36,449 bases of DNA from a virus (taxonomy: Duplodnaviria; Heunggongvirae; Uroviricota; Caudoviricetes), in the IMG/VR virus record IMGVR_UViG_2541047954_000009. One strand, given 5' to 3'. Numbering within the stretch: the first letter of the stretch is position 1; the number at the start of each line of letters is the position of its first letter. The notes below the pieces were generated by a model. That model was given only the letters and a program-made list of their open reading frames with translations. It did no database searches and was not told the origin of the DNA. The translations under genes were made by a program, and so were the position numbers. Below are positions 1,184-25,625 of the stretch, piece by piece.

Positions 1184-1666
1184 ATGGAAGAACTTCACTT
1201 TGTTTACATCAATGCAAATGGTCGTATCGGTGTTCACTCTATACAGAGCATCAGTTATAGCGAAAATCATATACAGGGCATTTGTAAGAACACCGATCGA
1301 ATAAAAACCTTCCGAAAAGACCGCATTCTTAAACAGTACGATTCACCAGAACAAGCCATTCAGGAATGCGCGTCATTCCTCCCCGAAAACTACTCACATC
1401 TCACTAAGCAGTCAGGTCCGAAAAAAAATACATTCGATGTGTGTTTCACCGGATTTAAGAAAGCAGATAAAGAAAGATTGGTTGATAAGGCGAATGACCA
1501 AGGATTAACGGTAAGAACCTCTATAACCCAAAGCCTTCAGATGCTCTGTTGCGGTTACAATGCAGGCCCATCAAAAGTATCGGCAGCCAGGATGAAAGGC
1601 ACAATCATCATAGATGAGCCTGGCTTTATACATTTTCTTGAAACGGGTGAGATCCCAGATGAATAA
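1184..1666 (+). CDS. Accessory protein with C-terminal BRCT-like domain and N-terminal WYL-like segment (160 aa)
   Basis: ORF with RBS AAGAGG 6 nt upstream of ATG. C-terminal half (DVCFTGFKKADKERLVDKANDQGLTVRTSITQ...TIIIDEPGFIHFLETGEI) resembles BRCT domains such as the C-terminus of NAD-dependent DNA ligase; the N-terminal motif KTFRKDRIL resembles the WYL-domain signature. Sits between attL and ogr, outside the conserved P2 backbone. Confidence 0.6.
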   Translation: MEELHFVYINANGRIGVHSIQSISYSENHIQGICKNTDRIKTFRKDRILKQYDSPEQAIQECASFLPENYSHLTKQSGPKKNTFDVCFTGFKKADKERLVDKANDQGLTVRTSITQSLQMLCCGYNAGPSKVSAARMKGTIIIDEPGFIHFLETGEIPDE

Positions 1667-1694
1667 AAACCTGCCGTAGCAGGTTCTCTTTCTT
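1662..1694. terminator. Bidirectional hairpin terminator between the BRCT gene and ogr
   Basis: Stem AACCTGC (1668-1674) and GCAGGTT (1679-1685), loop CGTA, flanked by an A-tract on one side and a T-rich tract on the other; convergent genes end on both sides. Confidence 0.55.
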
Positions 1695-1911
1695 AAAAAT
1701 TCATATGCCCCTGACCACCTGGCAATGGATGTGGAGGGGCTGTAGCAATCAATGCAGGTGTCACAATAAACCGGACCACTGTTTCATGGGTAACAAAAGT
1801 GCTCCCGCAGTTAATATTTTGGCACTGGCAGTAACGCTCTTTGGTGCTTTCTGTTACTTGAAAACTGCTCCTTGTGTGCGCCGCATGACCACACTTTGGA
1901 CAATTCATCAT
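1693..1911 (-). CDS. ogr: Late gene transcriptional activator Ogr (zinc finger, about 72 aa)
   Basis: Translation MMNCPKCGHAAHTRSSFQVTESTKERYCQCQNINCGSTF...PHPLPGGQ matches P2 Ogr/186 B family (CxxC...CxxC zinc finger); RBS GGGGG upstream of tandem ATGs at 1911/1908. The longer six-frame ORF start at 1956 is likely not used. Confidence 0.85.
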   Translation of the reverse strand: MMNCPKCGHAAHTRSSFQVTESTKERYCQCQNINCGSTFVTHETVVRFIVTPALIATAPPHPLPGGQGHMNF

Positions 1912-1979
1912 ATCCAGCCCCCTACCTTTGCTATCAGAATCATTGCAATGATACACAAAATACCAATATTGAGAACCAT

Positions 1980-16272: not shown

Positions 16273-16476
16273 TCAGTCCCATAGCTGGACGGTCTGCACG
16301 GTGGTGGTTGCCGGAATGTCCGGCAGCTCCACCTGCAGCCCGTGAGGTAAAAAGGGGCCGTATTCGGCAAGCCCCGGATTTGCCTTCAGTACCTGCTCCG
16401 TGACACCCTGCGTGCGCCCGTAATGACGCCAGCAAAGCGCGTCCACCGTGTCATACTGATGCGCACGCACTTTCAT
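16273..16476 (-). CDS. X: Tail protein X
   Basis: 67-aa ORF resembling P2 gpX, in the position between L and the lysis genes. Confidence 0.8.
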   Translation of the reverse strand: MKVRAHQYDTVDALCWRHYGRTQGVTEQVLKANPGLAEYGPFLPHGLQVELPDIPATTTVQTVQLWD

Positions 16477-16940
16477 CAGATAAGCTCCACTGTGCAGTGC
16501 GGCGCATCCTGCACCCGGCTGATGGCCCAGCGGGCGTCACGCCACAAATCACCGCTTGCTTCCGCCAGTTCCTCGCCTCGCTTCACACCGGACGCCGTGG
16601 CGTCATAGTCCTGGTATCGTTCGTTGAGCATGGCGCGTGCCCAGCAGTAAACCGCGTTGAAATAGTGCTGAATGCGCTCACTTTTGCCGTCCAACTGTTC
16701 CGCCGGAACCTCAGCCAGCGACGCATACCCCAGCATCTGCTGACGTCTGCGAAACTCATACAGCTCTGCGTTGACCTCCGAAATTGCCGACAGCGCAACC
16801 TGCTTTAAACGCGGCTGCGTCACCGTGCCGTCAGTGCGCATCACACTGCGAAACTCCGACAGGTCCACATCAGGCCAGAACGGCGTATTTCTGATGATTT
16901 CCGCCTGTTCCGGTGCCTGTTCTGGCGCAACAAACTTCAT
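16476..16940 (-). CDS. L: Head completion/stabilisation protein L
   Basis: Resembles P2 gpL; start placed at ATG 16940 (MKFVAPEQ..., RBS AGGAGA 7 nt upstream); the six-frame ORF extends to 17003. Confidence 0.8.
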   Translation of the reverse strand: MKFVAPEQAPEQAEIIRNTPFWPDVDLSEFRSVMRTDGTVTQPRLKQVALSAISEVNAELYEFRRRQQMLGYASLAEVPAEQLDGKSERIQHYFNAVYCWARAMLNERYQDYDATASGVKRGEELAEASGDLWRDARWAISRVQDAPHCTVELI

Positions 16941-17035
16941 GCTGCTTTCTCCTGAAATAAAGGGCGGTGGACGGGGTTTTGATGTGGCAGAGCCTTTCGC
17001 CACCCCGTGCCGCCCGTGCGCGGGGGCACGTTCTG

Positions 17036-17686
17036 TCAGCGGCTGTCATTGCGCAGTCTGCGCTCCAGCTGCTGTTTGTCTTTTTTCACGCCACAGCGGG
17101 GATCGAGCTGTAACGCATGGTTGAGATGATTAAGGGCGGAAGCCGGATTGCTTTCACTCAGGACAGCGCCAATCGCTTTATGCAGACGCGCCCGTGACTG
17201 GTCCGGCATATCCAGATCGTCTGTCAGTTCCAGCGTCTGCAGCAACAGATCAGCATCAAAGCCGATGGCGGCAAGCATTGCGCTCTGCGCTGCGTCTGCC
17301 ATTTCCTCTGCCAGCACGGTCTGCACGTTGCGGTTACCCAGCGGCATCACCCAGCCATGACGCAGGGCATGACGCCCGATCTCCAGCGCCCCGGCATAAT
17401 CTCCAGCATCAATGCGCCACAGCATCACGTACATCAGCACGTCATCCTGCTGTGCGCCTCCGGCAGCCAGGACACCCTCCGCCCAGGCGGCGTACTTCGG
17501 CAGCAGCTCCACTTTGATTTCCGCTTTTTTGACCGTGGACTGAACGCCCTTGAGACGGCGGCGGTCTTCCGCCAGTTGCAGCAGCATCAGGTCATAGCCC
17601 GACGCGTGGCGAACACTGCCGCCCTCGCGGGCGGCCTGTTCAGCCTGAACGCGCAGGCGATGCTGCCGTGCGGGACTCAGGCTCAT
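17036..17686 (-). CDS. M: Terminase small (endonuclease) subunit M
   Basis: 216-aa ORF resembling P2 gpM, between N and L. Confidence 0.85.
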   Translation of the reverse strand: MSLSPARQHRLRVQAEQAAREGGSVRHASGYDLMLLQLAEDRRRLKGVQSTVKKAEIKVELLPKYAAWAEGVLAAGGAQQDDVLMYVMLWRIDAGDYAGALEIGRHALRHGWVMPLGNRNVQTVLAEEMADAAQSAMLAAIGFDADLLLQTLELTDDLDMPDQSRARLHKAIGAVLSESNPASALNHLNHALQLDPRCGVKKDKQQLERRLRNDSR

Positions 17687-17689
17687 GGT

Positions 17690-18745
17690 TTATGCTCCGG
17701 CTTCTGCGGCGGTGCTGAAGTCGCCAATCTGGATGTTTTCCACCAGTGCGGCGCAGCGGTAGTCCTCAACCACATAGGCTTCGTTAACGGATTCAAAGTT
17801 TTCAATCCGGTCACGTTTCGGGTTGTCGATAACTGAACGGCGGCGGGTGTCTTCCTGCCAGTAGATGGACAGGTTATCCAGACGGGTGATCAGCAGCGCA
17901 TTCGGCGGGAAGAACGGCGCACGCACGGCCTGCAGGCCACCCATGCGTTTCTGGCTGATGATCATATCGGCAGCCAGTTTTTCACTGTTTTCCTGCTCTT
18001 TGTTGACCAGCGGGAAATACTTATCAGACAACAGTTCACGACCGCAAATCACCACCAGATCGTCATCGTCCTGGTAGACCACGTCGATAAGCTCATTAAC
18101 GGCATCCATCACCACGGCGTCCAGGTTGGCATATTCGCCACCTTTACCGACTTTCACCGCGCCCGGTGTGGTTTCACCGCCCGTGGTGGTGCTGCCCATG
18201 ACGTGATCCGGTGCATCCTCACGGATTTTCTGCAGCCAGCCTTTATTCACATCCTGCAGCAGCGGGTTTTCGCTACGGTTGGAGGTTTTCGCACGCTTCA
18301 CGCCGTTAAAGCCGATCATGATGCGGTCCAGTGCCTGACGTTTCACGATGGCGTCACGGATACGCACCTGAAAATCCTGAAACTTCGCCCACAGGTCCAG
18401 CTTCGCGTAGGTCAGCACCGTGTCAAAGTTGGTCTGCTCGCATTTATATTCCACATCGACCATCAGCGTCGGATCGACAGGTTCACGCTCTTTCGCGGTG
18501 GTATCAGTGGTTCCGGCAATGGTGCTGCCAACTCCCAACCCCAGCAGCTGACCGGACTGCTCAGTCACTGGCGTGACGTTAATCAGCGTCAGGAAAGCGG
18601 CGGACTGCTGGATCTGGTCTTCCAATGTCTGCTGCACGGACGGCTCTACGGTGAACTTGCTGGACAGTTCTTCAACTGCCACACCGTTCAGGCGCGCCAG
18701 TTGCTGCAGGTAAGCGTTAAAAGCAAAGCGGGTATTCTTCTTCAT
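17690..18745 (-). CDS. N: Major capsid protein N
   Basis: 351-aa ORF resembling P2 gpN. Confidence 0.92.
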   Translation of the reverse strand: MKKNTRFAFNAYLQQLARLNGVAVEELSSKFTVEPSVQQTLEDQIQQSAAFLTLINVTPVTEQSGQLLGLGVGSTIAGTTDTTAKEREPVDPTLMVDVEYKCEQTNFDTVLTYAKLDLWAKFQDFQVRIRDAIVKRQALDRIMIGFNGVKRAKTSNRSENPLLQDVNKGWLQKIREDAPDHVMGSTTTGGETTPGAVKVGKGGEYANLDAVVMDAVNELIDVVYQDDDDLVVICGRELLSDKYFPLVNKEQENSEKLAADMIISQKRMGGLQAVRAPFFPPNALLITRLDNLSIYWQEDTRRRSVIDNPKRDRIENFESVNEAYVVEDYRCAALVENIQIGDFSTAAEAGA

Positions 18746-18761
18746 CAGGTTTTGTGCTCCA

Positions 18762-19595
18762 TCAGCAATTGGTCAGAGTGTCAGCGGGGGCGTTACCGCC
18801 TGTTGCACGCTGGCGGTAGTCCTGGCGGCTGTCTTCTTGGCTCAGCTTGTCCACCAGTTCGTTAAAGGCGGTCTGCTGTGCCTGCAGGGCTGTCTCCAGC
18901 TCAGACAGGCGCTCTTCCTGCTCAGACAGGGATTTTTCGGTGCGCGCACTCAGGTTCTGCTGCTCAGTGGCGACCAGCTCCACGGCCTTATGCACATCAG
19001 AGAACCGGGCGTCATCGGACTGCTCTTTTTTGGTGAACAGCGCCGTGACACGGGCAAACAGGGACGGCTTGTCCTCCTGGATTTCTTCCAGTTCGATCAC
19101 CGTTTCCTCTGCGGCTGTAAAGAGATTGGCGGGATTCTGCTTGCGGTTTGCCAGCGGGTTATGGGCTGCACTGGCGCTGAATGTCAGCATTTCAGTGCCC
19201 AGACTGGCAGGGTCATCAGTGGCAGCCAGGCCGACCAGGTAGGCTTTGCCCGTATCAGCAAACTTCGGGCTGACTTCCATAGAGGTGAATAATTTCTGGC
19301 CTTTTTTCACCAGTTCCACCAGGGACTCCGTTGGCTCAACGTCGGCATACAGCGCCATCTTGCCTGCCAGCGGACCTTCCGTGATTTCTTCAGCAAACAG
19401 CGCCGTCACCTTACCGTAGCGGTTAAAGGTGCTGTCCGGCAGATAAGACTTGATGTGCTCAAGGTTAATCAGCGCGGTATACACCGCCGGGTTGTAGCTG
19501 GCTGCCATCTGTTCCAGCCATTCACGCTGGATTTCGCGTCCGTCGGTGGTGGCACCTTCCACCCCGATGCGAAAACGCTTTGCTTTCACTGTCAT
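18762..19595 (-). CDS. O: Capsid scaffolding protein O
   Basis: 277-aa ORF resembling P2 gpO; first gene of the O-N-M-L-X block, divergent from P. Confidence 0.9.
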   Translation of the reverse strand: MTVKAKRFRIGVEGATTDGREIQREWLEQMAASYNPAVYTALINLEHIKSYLPDSTFNRYGKVTALFAEEITEGPLAGKMALYADVEPTESLVELVKKGQKLFTSMEVSPKFADTGKAYLVGLAATDDPASLGTEMLTFSASAAHNPLANRKQNPANLFTAAEETVIELEEIQEDKPSLFARVTALFTKKEQSDDARFSDVHKAVELVATEQQNLSARTEKSLSEQEERLSELETALQAQQTAFNELVDKLSQEDSRQDYRQRATGGNAPADTLTNC

Positions 19596-19673
19596 GAGCC
19601 GTGCTCCGTTAGAAAAAACTTACTGGAGCCTTATGGTTGCGGTGATGGGGGCAGTGAAACAATGCGCGGTATT

Positions 19674-19691
19674 TGTACCGACAACCACACA
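19674..19691. promoter_or_regulatory. Candidate Ogr-dependent late promoter element (TGT-N12-ACA dyad) in the divergent O/P control region
   Basis: TGTACCGACAACCACACA lies in the 142-bp gap between O (minus) and P (plus), about 87 nt upstream of the O start codon. Confidence 0.5.
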
Positions 19692-19737
19692 AACCGCAGG
19701 CGGGGAAAGCCTTCATTCAAGGTTGTAGGTTTGTGCC

Positions 19738-21504
19738 ATGAACACCACACTGACACCCGCAGATCTCGATCCCCGTCGGCAGGCCATGCTGCTGTACTTT
19801 CAGGGATACCGCGTAGCCCGCATTGCTGAAATGCTGGGCGAGAAAGTTGCAACCGTTCACAGCTGGAAAAAACGCGACAAGTGGGGTGACTATGGGCCGC
19901 TGGATCAGATGCAGCTCACCACCACCGCACGCTACTGCCAGCTCATCATGAAGGAGCACAAAGAAGGGAAAGATTTCAAAGAGATTGACCTGCTGGCGCG
20001 CCAGTCGGAGCGCCACGCGCGGATCGGCAAGTTTAACAATGGCGGCAACGAAGCTGACTTAAACCCTAACGTCGCCAACCGCAACAAAGGCCCGCGCCGT
20101 CAGCCGGAAAAGAATGTCTTCACCGATGAACAGATTGAGAAGCTGGAAGAAATCTTCCATTCCTCCATGTTCAACTACCAGCGCCACTGGTGGGAAGCCG
20201 GAAAAACCAACCGCATCCGCAACCTGCTGAAGTCACGCCAGATCGGCGCGACCTTTTACTTTGCCCGTGAAGCCCTGATTGACGCCCTGCTTACCGGACG
20301 TAACCAGATTTTCCTTTCCGCCAGTAAGGCACAGGCCCACGTCTTTAAGCAGTACATCATCGACTTCGCCAAAGAAGTGGATGTGGAACTGAAAGGCGAT
20401 CCGATGGTGCTTCCTAACGGGGCCACGCTTTACTTCCTCGGCACCAATGCCCGCACGGCTCAGAGTTACCACGGCAACCTGTATCTGGATGAATATTTCT
20501 GGATACCAAAATTCCAGGAGCTGCGCAAAGTAGCTTCCGGTATGGCTATCCACAAAAAATGGCGGCAGACCTATTTTTCCACGCCATCCAGCCTGACACA
20601 CAGTGCTTATCCGTTCTGGTCCGGTGCGCTGTTCAACCGTGGGCGCAACAAAGCTGACAAGGTGGACATCGACCTGTCCCACAGCAATCTGGCCCCCGGC
20701 CTGCTGTGCGCAGACGGGCAATACCGCCAGATAGTCACCGTGGAAGATGCGGTGCGCGGCGGCTGTAACCTGTTCGACCTCGACCAGCTACGCATGGAGT
20801 ACAGCCCGGACGAATACCAGAACCTGCTGATGTGCGAGTTCGTGGACGATCTCGCGTCCGTGTTCCCGCTCAGCGAACTGCAGGCGTGCATGGTGGACAG
20901 TTGGGAAGTCTGGACCGACTTTCATGCACTGGCCCTGCGCCCGTTTGGCTGGCGCGAGGTGTGGATCGGTTATGACCCGGCAAAAGGTACGCAGAACGGC
21001 GACAGTGCCGGATGCGTGGTGGTGGCTCCGCCAGCCGTGCCGGGCGGTAAGTTCCGTATTCTTGAGCGTCACCAGTGGCGCGGGATGGACTTCCGCGCCC
21101 AGGCTGACGCCATCAAAAAACTTACCGAACAGTACAACGTGACTTATATCGGTATCGACTCAACCGGCGTTGGTCACGGGGTTTACGAGAACGTGAAAGC
21201 GTTCTTTCCTGCCGTCCGGGAGTTTGTCTACAACCCCAATGTTAAAAACGCCCTGGTACTCAAGGCCTACGACATTATCAGCCACCGCCGTCTGGAGTTT
21301 GACGCCGGACACACCGACATAGCGCAGTCATTCATAGCAATCCGGCGCGCCACCACCGCGAGCGGCAACCGCCCAACCTATGAAGCCAGCCGCAGCGAAG
21401 AAGCCAGCCACGCCGATCTGGCCTGGGCAACGATGCACGCACTGTTTAACGAACCGCTGCAGGGCGAATCCGCCAATACCAGCAATATTGTGGAGATTTT
21501 TTGA
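19738..21504 (+). CDS. P: Terminase large (ATPase) subunit P (588 aa)
   Basis: Resembles P2 gpP over its full length, including the ATPase core (KSRQIGATFYF...NLYLDEYFW). Confidence 0.93.
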   Translation: MNTTLTPADLDPRRQAMLLYFQGYRVARIAEMLGEKVATVHSWKKRDKWGDYGPLDQMQLTTTARYCQLIMKEHKEGKDFKEIDLLARQSERHARIGKFNNGGNEADLNPNVANRNKGPRRQPEKNVFTDEQIEKLEEIFHSSMFNYQRHWWEAGKTNRIRNLLKSRQIGATFYFAREALIDALLTGRNQIFLSASKAQAHVFKQYIIDFAKEVDVELKGDPMVLPNGATLYFLGTNARTAQSYHGNLYLDEYFWIPKFQELRKVASGMAIHKKWRQTYFSTPSSLTHSAYPFWSGALFNRGRNKADKVDIDLSHSNLAPGLLCADGQYRQIVTVEDAVRGGCNLFDLDQLRMEYSPDEYQNLLMCEFVDDLASVFPLSELQACMVDSWEVWTDFHALALRPFGWREVWIGYDPAKGTQNGDSAGCVVVAPPAVPGGKFRILERHQWRGMDFRAQADAIKKLTEQYNVTYIGIDSTGVGHGVYENVKAFFPAVREFVYNPNVKNALVLKAYDIISHRRLEFDAGHTDIAQSFIAIRRATTASGNRPTYEASRSEEASHADLAWATMHALFNEPLQGESANTSNIVEIF

Positions 21505-22211
21505 TGCCCCCAATCCCAACTAACCTCATGACTATCGCGGGACTTCCGGTGGATAGCTTTTTCTTTGCTTACCAGTATGAGTGGAACACTGGCCCAAAGA
21601 GTAGAAACCGTGTACTCACAAAAATGCGCCAGGCAGGCGCGGATTTCTTTTTTTCCTATGAAGCCCTGAACGATGCACTGCATACCGGGCGTAACCAGAT
21701 TTTCCTCTGCTGCAGCACAGCATCTGCGCAGGCAATCAAAGCCTATGTATCAGCATTCTTAAGCCAGGCCGCAGCTTATACGCACACTGGAAAAATAAAA
21801 TCAGGCAAAAGTCATCTGGAGCTTTCGAATGGTGCAGTAATTTATTTTACCGACCTCCGCAGTCTCACCTCCGCACTCAGTGGAAATGTTTACGTGTCAG
21901 AGTATGCCTGGAGTGAATCACCGAGAAATATGATTGCCATCGCTAAAGGGATTTCTATGCACGCACACCACCACGCCACCTACTACACCACTCCCAGCCC
22001 TAACCCAGAGGCACGGCAGGAATATAAAAAGCTATGCAGAAACAACAGCGTAACCAGCATGGTGTTCACCGCAGATGACGCAGCAGCATCTGGAGCAATG
22101 TTGTTTACTGATAACTGGCTGAACGATATGAAAAAAGAATTATCAGAAGAGGACTGGAAAATGCTGTTTATGTGCGAATGGCCTCTCGCTAGCAAGGAAC
22201 TGGCAGAATGA
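21504..22211 (+). CDS. Terminase ATPase-domain paralog (truncated, degenerate catalytic motifs), inserted between P and Q
   Basis: 235-aa ORF that aligns by eye to gpP residues about 145-385 of the same prophage (FAYQYEWNTGPKSRNRVLTKMRQAGADFFFSYEALNDALHTGRNQIFL versus FNYQRHWWEAGKTNRIRNLLKSRQIGATFYFAREALIDALLTGRNQIFL), with substitutions at the conserved Thr (to Asp) and Walker-B-like Asp (to Ser); start ATG overlaps the P stop (TGATG) and its stop overlaps the Q start (ATGA). Confidence 0.7.
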   Translation: MPPIPTNLMTIAGLPVDSFFFAYQYEWNTGPKSRNRVLTKMRQAGADFFFSYEALNDALHTGRNQIFLCCSTASAQAIKAYVSAFLSQAAAYTHTGKIKSGKSHLELSNGAVIYFTDLRSLTSALSGNVYVSEYAWSESPRNMIAIAKGISMHAHHHATYYTTPSPNPEARQEYKKLCRNNSVTSMVFTADDAAASGAMLFTDNWLNDMKKELSEEDWKMLFMCEWPLASKELAE

Positions 22212-23239
22212 GCAAACGTAAAAACACCAAGCAGGTAACAGTTGGTCACGACACAAAACCAAGCAACGGCCCAACGGCTGAGGCTTTCAGCTTTGGTGAT
22301 CCCATCCCCGTGCTGGACCGCCGCGAACTGCTGGACTATGTGGAATGCGTACAGATGGATCGCTGGTATGAGCCGCCCGTCAGCTTTAATGGACTGGCGC
22401 GCACCTTCCGCGCCGCCGTGCATCACAGTTCCCCGATTGCAGTAAAGTGCAACATTCTGACCAGTACCTATATCCCTCATCCGCTGCTTAGCCAGCAGGC
22501 TTTTTCGCGTTTTGTGCAGGACTATCTGGTATTTGGTAACGCCTACCTGGAGAAACGCACGAACCGCTTTGGTGAAGTTATCGCCCTTGAGCCAGCTTTG
22601 GCAAAATACACCCGGCGCGGATTAGACCTGGATACCTACTGGTTTGTGCAAGACGGTATGACAGCCCAGCCGTATCAGTTCACGAAAGGCAACATTTTTC
22701 ATCTGATGGAACCGGACATCAACCAGGAGATCTACGGCCTGCCAGGTTATCTCTCTGCCATCCCGTCAGCCCTGCTCAACGAGTCCGCCACACTGTTCCG
22801 CCGTAAGTATTACATCAACGGCAGCCATGCAGGTTTCATCATGTACATGACCGATGCCGCACAGAACCAAGAAGATGTGAACAACCTCCGCAACGCAATG
22901 AAAAGCGCCAAAGGGCCAGGCAACTTCCGCAACCTGTTTATGTACTCTCCTAACGGCAAAAAGGACGGGCTTCAGATTATCCCGTTGTCAGAAGTCGCGG
23001 CGAAGGATGAGTTTCTGAATATCAAGAACGTGAGCCGGGACGACATGATGGCGGCACACCGTGTGCCGCCGCAAATGATGGGGATAATGCCTAATAATGT
23101 TGGGGGGTTTGGGGATGTGGAGAAGGCTAGTAAGGTTTTTGTGATAAATGAATTAATTCCTTTGCAAAAACGATTTATGGAAATAAACGCATGGCTCGGG
23201 GAGAAACTTATAGAATTTTCTCCATATGAGCTTAACTAA
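22208..23239 (+). CDS. Q: Portal protein Q
   Basis: 343-aa ORF resembling P2 gpQ (AVHHSSPI, LNESATLFRRKYY, IPLSEVA segments). Confidence 0.93.
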   Translation: MSKRKNTKQVTVGHDTKPSNGPTAEAFSFGDPIPVLDRRELLDYVECVQMDRWYEPPVSFNGLARTFRAAVHHSSPIAVKCNILTSTYIPHPLLSQQAFSRFVQDYLVFGNAYLEKRTNRFGEVIALEPALAKYTRRGLDLDTYWFVQDGMTAQPYQFTKGNIFHLMEPDINQEIYGLPGYLSAIPSALLNESATLFRRKYYINGSHAGFIMYMTDAAQNQEDVNNLRNAMKSAKGPGNFRNLFMYSPNGKKDGLQIIPLSEVAAKDEFLNIKNVSRDDMMAAHRVPPQMMGIMPNNVGGFGDVEKASKVFVINELIPLQKRFMEINAWLGEKLIEFSPYELN

Positions 23240-23288
23240 AATATTAGTTGCCAGTACCGTATTGTTGCTACTGGCAATTGCAATAAAA

Positions 23289-25625
23289 TTACAAATATGT
23301 ATTGCTATGTAGAGATGTGTTTATTCCATCTTCTATCTCAATTTTTGACGAAGCATACTCATCATTCGCACTATCATCAATATCAAACTCATCTTGTAGA
23401 TGAAGTGACTCATTTAACGGTCTATAAAACTCACCCATCATCATTTTGTAATGGGCAGTATGCTCACTACACTCAAATATCTTCTGAAAAACAATTAAAT
23501 ATTTTTGCACAGACTCCGTATCTAAACTCATATAAAGATCATCACCTGCAAAATGAGAACCATCATTAATCCATGACACTAAAGATTTAAATATGATTTT
23601 TTCATCACCATAAAAATGACACTCAAGCTTCCTAATATCAATCCCACCTAATATCTTAAAGTAATTCTCCAAAATCCTTCGCATTGTATTTTGTATAGTA
23701 TTATTATTAATATCTGTTCTTCTCAATTCGCACCAGAGCAAATCATAAGACGTTTTTATTGGGTTTGATTCGCACTTTTCAAGATATGAGACCTTCCCTT
23801 TTTTCCTTACAATCCAAAAAGTCTCCTCTTTCATTGCTTGATTACCGGATCTTTTAGTATTAAAAGTCAACTCTTTATGAAAATAAATATTATGCGTAAG
23901 GAATATAATTTGCTTAATATTTCCTTCATCCTTACGAACATCCTCCATTAAATCTTTAATCAACGAACTTACAATAAACAGAATATCACTATCTAAACTT
24001 GAAATTGGATCATCAAATACTACAACACGATCATCTAAAACACCTGATGCATTATCACTCCCTCTAACAAGGCTATAAAAATACAAAAAAGTGATAAATG
24101 TCTTTTCTCCCTCGCTAAGGGTTGTACGAGCATTATCTCCACTATCTCTCACTATCATATAATGCTTTTTATCTTCGGAGGGTTTTAAGTAAAAATTTTT
24201 GAAGCCATAAGAATCCAGAATCTTGTTAATTTTTGTAATAGTTGGAAGAGTACTGGTTTTATTAGACTCAATTGCCTCAATAGCCGAAGCATTTAACATT
24301 AACTTCTTTTTGTCTTCCTCTAACCCAGATTTAAGTCCTTGTAACTTCCTATTAAATTTATCAGATTCGCTACGGTAAGAAGTTATTTCAGACTTTAACT
24401 CCACCTTTACGATATATGCCCATATCTGATTAGAAAGATTACTAGCCTCTACCTTTCTATTACTGTGTATTTTGTTATTATTATCTATCAATAGATTTGA
24501 ATCATTCAAAAAAGAAATAAAATCATCAACAACTTCACTTAAGTCACTAAAATGAACTGATTCACTTAAAAAATTGCGTTTATTTTTTGCCAATTCAAAA
24601 TTCTTGTTTAATTCAGATAATACTATCTTAGCCTTATCCTCAAATACTTCATAATTTATGAATGGAGATTTAATCGCCCTTATATCATCTATCGCCTGCA
24701 AGATATTATTAAGTTGATGTTCATATTGTAAAACCAATGCATCGATTTCTCTTTTTTTTAACTCATATGTTTTATCAAAATATGATGATAGATTATAAAA
24801 TATATTATCATTTACATCCTGCTGGCAAAATGGGCACTTGGGATTAGATTTACTGAAATATGTTAAACCTTCCTTAACCCAATCACTGTTATTGAGCATT
24901 GTAATTAAGTCTGAAACACTAACGTCTTTTTTCCCTAGAATACGCTCACTCCAAATCTCCCTACTCAAAATATCATCTATCCTATTGAAGGATGGAATTG
25001 TAATTGATACATGTGATGTCAATTCAGTAGAAAAAACAATTTTTGCTTTCTCAATTAGCTCTGCTATTGAGCAAACTTCTGATGTGTTATTTTCATACTC
25101 AGCCAACACTCTAGCTTTAAATTTTTCACTACTATTCCTTAATCCCTCAAAAGCCTTTGAGAACACATTATCATGTTTTACTTTTTGCTTCCAACATGAA
25201 TCTTTAAAAGATTTTTCATGGTCTTCGATTTGTTTAACAACGCCTAATATATTATCACCACCATCTATTAGCTTTTCCTTTGCTATAATAGATTCTATTA
25301 GCTTATTTTTTTCTTCTTCAAGAGATATTAGTTTCTCTTCATCCTCCTTAAGATCGCTACCAAGGGTAAATACACCTTTAATTTTATCTTGACTAAAATT
25401 TCTTTCAACAAAATCTTTATTATATACGTAGCTTATTAAAGATATATTATTTTTCCATTTAATCGGACATGTTGGATATTGTTCAGGGTCATTAATAATT
25501 TTACTTATAGTTGTTTTACCTGCACCATTAGCTCCATATAAATAGTTAAATTTAGAAAGCCCATGTAAAAGCTGAGTAGGGCCATTATATGAGCCTACTT
25601 TGTCAATAACTACCTCTTCAATCAT
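23289..25625 (-). CDS. ABC-type P-loop ATPase of the PrrC/RloC-like AAA_13 kind (778 aa); candidate anti-phage/abortive-infection protein
   Basis: Walker A YGANGAGKTT (aa 30-39, nt 25509-25535), CPFC zinc-hook-like motif (aa 264-267, nt 24825-24836) in a Lys/Glu-rich coiled-coil-like insert, ABC signature-like LSEGEK (aa 503-508), Walker B VVVFDDP (aa 534-540, nt 24006-24026), H-loop THN (aa 577-579), and a C-terminal region with RRILENYF and SH. Markedly AT-rich, between Q and the cos site. Confidence 0.75.
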   Translation of the reverse strand: MIEEVVIDKVGSYNGPTQLLHGLSKFNYLYGANGAGKTTISKIINDPEQYPTCPIKWKNNISLISYVYNKDFVERNFSQDKIKGVFTLGSDLKEDEEKLISLEEEKNKLIESIIAKEKLIDGGDNILGVVKQIEDHEKSFKDSCWKQKVKHDNVFSKAFEGLRNSSEKFKARVLAEYENNTSEVCSIAELIEKAKIVFSTELTSHVSITIPSFNRIDDILSREIWSERILGKKDVSVSDLITMLNNSDWVKEGLTYFSKSNPKCPFCQQDVNDNIFYNLSSYFDKTYELKKREIDALVLQYEHQLNNILQAIDDIRAIKSPFINYEVFEDKAKIVLSELNKNFELAKNKRNFLSESVHFSDLSEVVDDFISFLNDSNLLIDNNNKIHSNRKVEASNLSNQIWAYIVKVELKSEITSYRSESDKFNRKLQGLKSGLEEDKKKLMLNASAIEAIESNKTSTLPTITKINKILDSYGFKNFYLKPSEDKKHYMIVRDSGDNARTTLSEGEKTFITFLYFYSLVRGSDNASGVLDDRVVVFDDPISSLDSDILFIVSSLIKDLMEDVRKDEGNIKQIIFLTHNIYFHKELTFNTKRSGNQAMKEETFWIVRKKGKVSYLEKCESNPIKTSYDLLWCELRRTDINNNTIQNTMRRILENYFKILGGIDIRKLECHFYGDEKIIFKSLVSWINDGSHFAGDDLYMSLDTESVQKYLIVFQKIFECSEHTAHYKMMMGEFYRPLNESLHLQDEFDIDDSANDEYASSKIEIEDGINTSLHSNTYL

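Follow-up and report, generated by a model that had tools for sequence, protein, structure and literature searches.

We propose a role in the control of DNA packaging for a 235-amino-acid (aa) open reading frame (ORF), here called X, that lies between the terminase gene P and the portal gene Q of an Escherichia coli P2-family prophage. The prophage is the subject of the window, by which we mean the whole 36,449-nucleotide stretch of IMG/VR record IMGVR_UViG_2541047954_000009, and its X is 100% identical to the ORF of E. coli 23CRST035. In our reading, to which we assign a probability of about 0.4, X would be a functional accessory late gene encoding a nucleotide-binding terminase mimic that acts by binding and tunes the packaging machinery of its own phage. 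X is a diverged member of a family annotated in phage 186 decades ago, and its place between P and Q has precedents. New to this analysis are the family-wide Asp/Ser re-wiring of the nucleotide pocket, recurrent loss of catalytic residues among sister lineages, a second genomic position and the presence/absence polymorphism of the gene.

What kind of protein does X encode? A reading of the bare sequence, the original prediction, had aligned X by eye to the ATPase core of the prophage's own large terminase subunit (TerL), gpP, and had noted that the N- and C-terminal regions of gpP are missing from it; both observations are borne out. BLASTP aligns X residues 18-226 with gpP residues 142-368 at 32% identity (E=7e-30), which is far beyond chance, and Pfam Terminase_6N matches X with 62.8 bits against a cut-off of 22. 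The Pfam scan of X found no counterpart of Terminase_5 (gpP 11-68) or of the Terminase_6C nuclease (gpP 410-571). X spans gpP from the equivalent of about residues 125-142 to that of residue 368, without the helix-turn-helix (HTH) and nuclease parts. An AlphaFold (AF2) model built from 33 homologs (pLDDT 80, pTM 0.81) has as its best Foldseek match the ATPase domain of T4 gp17 (TM 0.70-0.71), followed by other TerL ATPase domains; the model shows a TerL ATPase fold for X. Foldseek also returns 8dgc_E, an Avs3-bound terminase chain, merely because that chain is a TerL. The TerL ATPase domains of P2 gpP, T4 gp17 (N-terminal domain, PDB 2O0H/2O0J), P74-26, D6E, Sf6 and HK97 share the modelled fold of X (TM 0.6-0.7), and X keeps their Gln24 box, their P-loop Lys/Arg/Gln/Gly, the catalytic Glu and the C-motif. 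It differs from them in lacking the HTH/TerS-binding N-domain and the nuclease, and in that both canonical Mg2+ ligands are changed. At the DNA level, nucleotides 124-214 of X (21627-21717), which encode the Walker A box and the next helix and strand, are 75-84% identical to P of more than 1,000 E. coli genomes, in contrast with the 32% protein identity between X and P overall.

The most informative part of X is its nucleotide pocket. The two substitutions that had been picked out by eye are confirmed: KMRQAGAD stands where gpP has KSRQIGAT, and NVYVSE where gpP has NLYLDE. Within the clade of short proteins that carry the Asp (GAD clade), Gln24, Arg36, Lys40, Arg42, Gln43, Gly45, Asp47, Glu133, Thr159 and Ser165 are invariant or nearly so. 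Gln24, conserved in 100% of the X clade and 96% of TerLs, we take from the TerL literature to be the adenine-contacting Gln. The two changed positions go together: none of 71 short proteins combines a Walker-A Asp with a Walker-B Asp, the Walker-B partner being Ser, Pro, Ala, Gly or Leu in every one, and all 51 full-length TerLs compared pair a Walker-A Ser/Thr with a Walker-B Asp. The Thr-to-Asp and Asp-to-Ser changes look as if the two Mg2+ ligands had been exchanged in a coupled way. The pocket, the best-conserved part of X, appears to be re-wired rather than eroded, and X probably binds nucleotide. The label 'catalytically degenerate' in the original prediction fits the two Walker substitutions, but is too strong for a pocket in this state.

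Motor activity is another matter. About 25 positions that are 86-100% conserved in the 51 full-length P2-type TerLs vary freely in the GAD clade; in gpP numbering, the TerL-conserved positions lost include S194, A195, S196, Q199, L218, G220, T236, N237 and Q242, as well as D251, Y291, W294, G296, D326, R330, G342, D370 and F376. Other short proteins at the same position, P0204 (locus L021, downstream of TerL) and P0094 (L019), have lost both the Walker-A Lys and the catalytic Glu. Because these positions are unconstrained and sister short lineages have lost Lys and Glu, motor activity of X is unlikely, and the earlier judgement that X is probably not a working terminase stands. A crude neighbour-joining tree places the GAD short proteins in one clade apart from full-length TerLs and canonical short proteins nearer to TerLs, although a few 'short canonical' entries of the metagenome set may be truncated TerLs.

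The setting of X points to a gene that is made together with its neighbours. X overlaps P by one base (TGATG, with the P stop TGA at 21502-21504 and the X start ATG at 21504-21506) and overlaps Q by three (ATGA at 22208-22211, with the Q start ATG at 22208-22210 and the X stop TGA at 22209-22211), as the original prediction had it. Putative ribosome-binding sites, GGAG at 21492-21495 and AAGGA at 22194-22198, lie 8-10 nt 5' of the respective starts. The TGATG junction between P and X is kept in all ten related loci examined, and in P2 an identical TGATG joins P straight to Q with no ORF between. The earlier statement that P and Q are adjacent in P2-type phages thus holds for P2, but not for 186 and others, which carry a P-like ORF between the two genes; nor is the arrangement unusual for P2-type phages, since the whole 186/PSP3 group shares it. 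No sigma-70-like promoter was found in a scan of 19500-23400. Because the codons overlap on both sides and there is no promoter-like site, we read X as a cistron within the P-Q late operon. X is indeed AT-richer than its neighbours, with a GC content of 0.479 (0.508 at third codon positions) against 0.568 (0.705) for P and 0.508 (0.608) for Q. When X is held against the definition of a moron, a gene with its own promoter and terminator, the lower GC is the only moron-like trait.

Two further observations concern this junction region. In several E. coli genomes (L009 at 3025, L010 at 3046 and L012 at 3025) the start that PGAP assigns to the X homolog is an internal ATG 24-45 nt further downstream; the coupled ATG that overlaps the P stop is conserved in all of them despite these calls. 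Within the Walker-A codons of X, at 21625-21654, a GC-rich hairpin (GCGCC-AGGCA-GGCGC) is followed by GGATTTCTTTTTTT; it is terminator-like, on the sense strand and upstream of the portal gene. A functional terminator inside X was set aside: the scan counted 8 such sites where 4.2 +/- 1.9 would be expected, not far above chance, and other alleles (GADWFF) do not keep the T-run.

How widespread is the family? A tblastn search of X against 50,697 phage records matched 420 P2-like records in 441 places, 21 more places than records; among the matches listed, each record with two places encodes a second TerL-like ORF, and coliphage 186 is one of them. The GenBank record of 186 annotates this ORF (CDS 1215..1961; AAC34147 / NP_052250; 248 aa) as 'W protein; similar to Orf12', and W sits between Orf12, the homolog of P2 P, and Orf2, the homolog of P2 Q, with overlapping stop/start junctions. 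Close homologs of W occur in PSP3 (gp2), EtG, Midge, SW9, SI22 and BIS20 and more distant ones in the Yersinia phages vB_YenM_201.16 and 56.17, while MLG42, a plaque-forming Yersinia phage, and Escherichia phage 500465-1 have copies of the X type. Among these, 186, PSP3, EtG, Midge, vB_YenM_201.16 and MLG42 are phage isolates. X matches phrog_3746 (E=1.3e-85), where the family label is just 'terminase large subunit'; PGAP calls the X family 'terminase large subunit domain-containing protein' and, at the E. coli locus identical to this one, gives P the name 'terminase ATPase subunit family protein'. Of 61 hits in a search of 5.8 billion proteins, one is a tail-fibre protein and 60 are family members, with identities down to 35% and full-length sizes nearly all of 225-241 aa (225-250 aa for the family overall); the genera represented are Escherichia, Salmonella, Citrobacter, Klebsiella, Leclercia, Phytobacter, Pantoea, Yersinia and Buttiauxella. 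When 1.84 billion representatives were searched with a profile, 510 relatives were recovered, including dozens more short stand-alone proteins of 220-290 aa. The remotest members with checked context, from Yersinia, Pantoea and Klebsiella (L004, L006 and L007; about 35-41% identity), keep the order P, X, Q and the overlapping codons. The label W itself is used inconsistently: the 186 records (L025/L026, 196-1961) tag both the portal and the P-like ORF as gene W, and the record of phage vB_YpM_MHG54 (L030, 4526-5572) names the portal 'W gene'.

W and X are alike in being stand-alone terminase-like ORFs in the same position of the same late operon, joined by overlapping codons and matched by a PHROG 3746-type profile, and both lack the TerL-invariant SAS..Q and TN..Q positions (for W, by eye on the alignment). 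They share just 34% global identity, however, and in W the KSRQIGAT and VYLDEF boxes are still canonical and there is a lid insert of about 30 residues with equivalents of D326, R330 and G342, whereas X has the GAD/SE boxes and a shortened lid and belongs to a distinct subtype. The copy in vB_YenM_201.16 is intermediate, with GAD and GE boxes and the long lid kept. These comparisons bear on the possibility that X is an active auxiliary ATPase, in which the Mg2+-binding carboxylate has moved from Walker B to Walker A with hydrolysis kept, and which would serve head assembly or packaging as a second ATPase like 186 W. The invariance of Lys40, Arg42, Gln43, Gly45, Glu133 and Gln24 would fit such an enzyme, and the strict mutual exclusion of the two Asp residues is what a compensated pair predicts; moreover, the short proteins of 186 (W), Midge and P0070 (L016), which share this position, have Walker A and B boxes that are canonical throughout, and the name given to the homolog in the 186 record is that of a gene defined by genetics. 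We nevertheless consider this rather improbable: many TerL-invariant positions are gone even from 186 W, several short lineages have neither the Lys nor the Glu, and natural relatives that have no W or no X are viable. In T4 gp17, single changes at either Mg ligand reportedly abolish packaging, which also counts against it.

Is X simply a relic? The ratios of non-synonymous to synonymous substitution (dN/dS; Nei-Gojobori method, same genome pairs for all three genes) are 0.20-0.40 for X, 0.01-0.08 for P and 0.01-0.14 for Q; X is under purifying selection that is several-fold more relaxed than that on its neighbours. Compared with the window, a Klebsiella locus (L007) has 91% identity in P, 41% in X and 75% in Q, and an E. 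coli locus (L011) 99%, 77% and 86%. A case for X as a partial copy of P in decay, or as a misannotated N-terminus of Q or C-terminus of P, could draw on its homology to P, its lower GC and the record of phage 500465-1, in which X and Q are frame-broken: there (L002, NC_049342, 5001-6758) the X homolog is truncated to 176 aa and two coding sequences make up the portal, through either sequencing frameshifts or a defective prophage-derived record. Such an origin is scarcely credible. The dN/dS values are not near 1, length and position are kept down to 35% identity, the substituted residues are invariant in their turn, the GAD short proteins have a clade to themselves on the crude tree, and every locus has X as a separate ORF bounded by a start and a stop of its own; the decaying duplication offered as one option in the original prediction is contradicted by these data. 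Two narrower versions were also rejected, a recent duplication of the resident P, given 32% identity and a separate clade, and mis-set boundaries of P or Q, given that X is a separate coupled ORF in related loci.

Selection on X coexists with its frequent absence. Our survey of P2/186-like prophages found X in 21 of the 1,228 complete E. coli genomes with this P type, and W in the 186 group. A prophage without X (L024) has a P 99.1% identical to that of the window, and the plaque-forming phage vB_YpM_MHG54, which has no W, is 98.8% identical to 186 in P and 96.5% in Q, with a different Q N-terminus. Because viable relatives with near-identical P and Q exist without X or W, X appears to be dispensable, that is, not needed for filling P2-type heads. 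The match to the window Q begins at nt 67-79 in prophages that lack X and at nt 1 in those that bear it, and for this reason the indel cassette consists of X plus the first 22-26 codons of Q. In the Fels-2-like and 186-like lineages alike, the portal N-terminus allele tracks the paralog, being MSKRK... where it is present and MG.K... where it is absent (portal starts compared at 22208-22285 of the window, at 4767-4840 of L024, and in 186, L025, and MHG54, L030). In P2 the N-terminal part of gpQ is removed on maturation. The linkage of this segment with X is either functional or a mere recombination boundary. A special portal allele co-adapted to X was rejected: the window Q core is 93.7% identical to alleles from prophages without X and 91.8% to another X-bearing copy, Q cores with and without X interleave, and P is 99% identical either way. 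E. coli matches labelled 'terminase large subunit domain-containing protein' at 11% coverage were likewise dismissed, as a degraded P remnant and not a diverged X.

The family occupies a second genomic position. A GAD/SE sister clade lies directly after replication gene A, in the orientation of A, inside the A-Q variable region next to cos; this was seen in four of four informative contexts, and in these four loci P adjoins Q. Gene calls were made at two of them (L022 and L023), where the start of the paralog overlaps the preceding ORF, gene A itself in L022 and a 77-aa ORF after A in L023. The post-A paralogs (P0093 and P0109) resemble X in size, in their GAD and S/P-E signature and in their clade on the crude tree; they differ from it in sequence (30-40% identity) and in belonging to an early operon, where they overlap or abut gene A at its end. 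Judged from operon position, expression at both sites would fall in the lytic cycle rather than in the repressed prophage. The A-Q region is a defence hotspot of E. coli P2-like prophages (PMC9122126), and no terminase-like cassette is listed in the paper that describes it or in its supplements (PMC9122126).

This position lends some weight to a different function, that of an anti-defence decoy. X would mimic the ATPase face of TerL, soak up or blunt sensors such as the STAND NTPases Avs1-3, and so protect gpP. Avs1-3 recognise the terminase fold by direct binding (10.64898/2026.01.04.697583). Several traits of X would suit a decoy: it is accessory and patchily distributed, several-fold faster evolving as a protein than P and Q, lower in GC than its neighbours, present at two positions of which one is in a variable hotspot with early expression, and conserved in exactly the universal TerL nucleotide pocket. 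Against this, our literature search yielded no description of terminase decoys, and neither X nor the post-A paralog (P0093) had a match in PADLOC and NCBIfam scans, so that no established anti-defence family was recognised. Sensors might be triggered rather than blunted by a TerL-like domain. Nor is X associated with any particular hotspot cargo, the A-Q neighbours at X loci being AAA_13, TIR, DEAD helicase, DarT/macro or none. We regard the decoy as a minority possibility, one that nonetheless deserves second place.

What, then, might X do? The original prediction had offered a packaging modulator or a decoy, and both are candidates here. In our model X would be translated from the P-Q late mRNA by stop/start coupling and would be made along with terminase and portal. 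It would bind nucleotide, yet neither translocate nor cut DNA, and would occupy a place otherwise taken by the TerL ATPase domain. The likeliest such place would be in the phage's own packaging machinery, at the portal/procapsid vertex or the gpP ring, where X would tune rather than drive packaging. We rank this modulator first because the coupling to P and Q is strict over deep divergence and because of the gene name in 186, with the anti-defence decoy second, the active auxiliary ATPase third, an activity against satellites or competitors below that, and decay excluded. Several points weigh against our model. The Asp/Ser exchange could preserve Mg2+ binding and hydrolysis. X diverges rapidly where P is still 99% identical, and a tight X-P complex predicts otherwise. 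An early-operon sister clade after gene A is an odd site for a packaging accessory. In addition, the classical gene W of 186 is a head gene with conditional-lethal mutants, which would point to an essential role; W amber mutations could be polar on the coupled portal gene. The literature search found no functional description of X, of 186 W or of their family.

The fourth of these candidates makes X a weapon against competitors, a dominant-negative terminase fragment that would poison the packaging of P4-like satellites or of co-resident and superinfecting phages. X is accessory and fast-evolving, as such a weapon might be, and P4 packages its DNA with the terminase and capsids of its helper (PMC9122126). 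P4, however, shares gpP, gpM, portal and cos with the helper and X has no DNA-recognition domain, and for these reasons it is hard to see how X could tell a satellite from self; with expression predicted only in the lytic cycle, X would not be a prophage-expressed exclusion gene either. We think this improbable. The packaging modulator that we favour may be compared with the redirectors by which satellites alter packaging, proteins that mimic or bind parts of terminase (SaPI small-terminase variants and Ppi; PICI Rpp), with which X might share a common principle, that a terminase look-alike or binder tunes packaging. Those factors concern the small subunit and are satellite-encoded, whereas X is a copy of the large-subunit ATPase domain encoded by a helper-type phage.

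What would follow for the family as a whole? A broader proposal, which we hold to be doubtful, is that the GAD/SE proteins are phage pseudo-terminases, nucleotide-binding TerL mimics that would shield terminase from Avs-type immunity or gate access to the portal, the exchange locking the pocket in a bound, non-hydrolysing state. TerLs, which bacterial immune sensors target directly, rank with the most conserved and most thoroughly studied proteins of phages. The family spans many Enterobacterales phages, comprises canonical and re-wired subtypes in two operon positions and appears to be naturally dispensable. If its members are packaging regulators or terminase decoys, they would represent a new layer of control or counter-defence and offer a natural ATPase pocket with exchanged Mg2+ ligands; if X is a minor accessory, the gain is a correct annotation in place of the 'terminase large subunit' that databases now give.

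Table 1. Features of the P-X-Q region of the window and of the post-A paralogs, with coordinates in the window unless a locus is named.
Feature	Position	Strand	Basis
L, M, N, O homologs	16476-19595	-	gene calls, domain scan
gpP, terminase large subunit, 588 aa (HTH Terminase_5, ATPase, RNaseH-like nuclease)	19738..21504	+	Pfam Terminase_5, Terminase_6N, Terminase_6C
P/X junction: GGAG ribosome-binding site within the end of P, then TGATG	21492..21506	+	sequence
X, stand-alone TerL ATPase-domain paralog, 235 aa, 186-W family, GAD/SE subtype	21504..22211	+	ORF call, BLASTP, Pfam, fold, PHROG
FAYQYEW; Gln24 aligns with the YQ box upstream of TerL Walker A	21564..21584	+	alignment
Walker-A-like KMRQAGAD (gpP KSRQIGAT); Lys40, Arg42, Gln43, Gly45 kept, Thr to Asp47	21621..21644	+	alignment
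Walker-B-like NVYVSE (gpP NLYLDE); Asp to Ser132, catalytic Glu133 kept	21885..21902	+	alignment
YTTPS, counterpart of the TerL C (coupling) motif FSTPS	21984..21998	+	alignment
X/Q junction: AAGGA ribosome-binding site within the end of X, then ATGA	22194..22211	+	sequence
gpQ portal, 343 aa	22208..23239	+	Pfam Phage_portal
Post-A short paralogs	L022 6001-6750; L023 6001-6738; L031, L032 4001-4663	same as A	4/4 informative contexts examined

The A-Q hotspot of the window itself holds a gene for a 778-aa AAA_13 ATPase (23289-25625, minus strand; Pfam 4.6e-164), which matches the PADLOC candidate defence family PDC-S06 (3.2e-266). It lies between portal gene Q and the DinI-like and A genes, and its GC content is about 0.30, against about 0.55 for the prophage.

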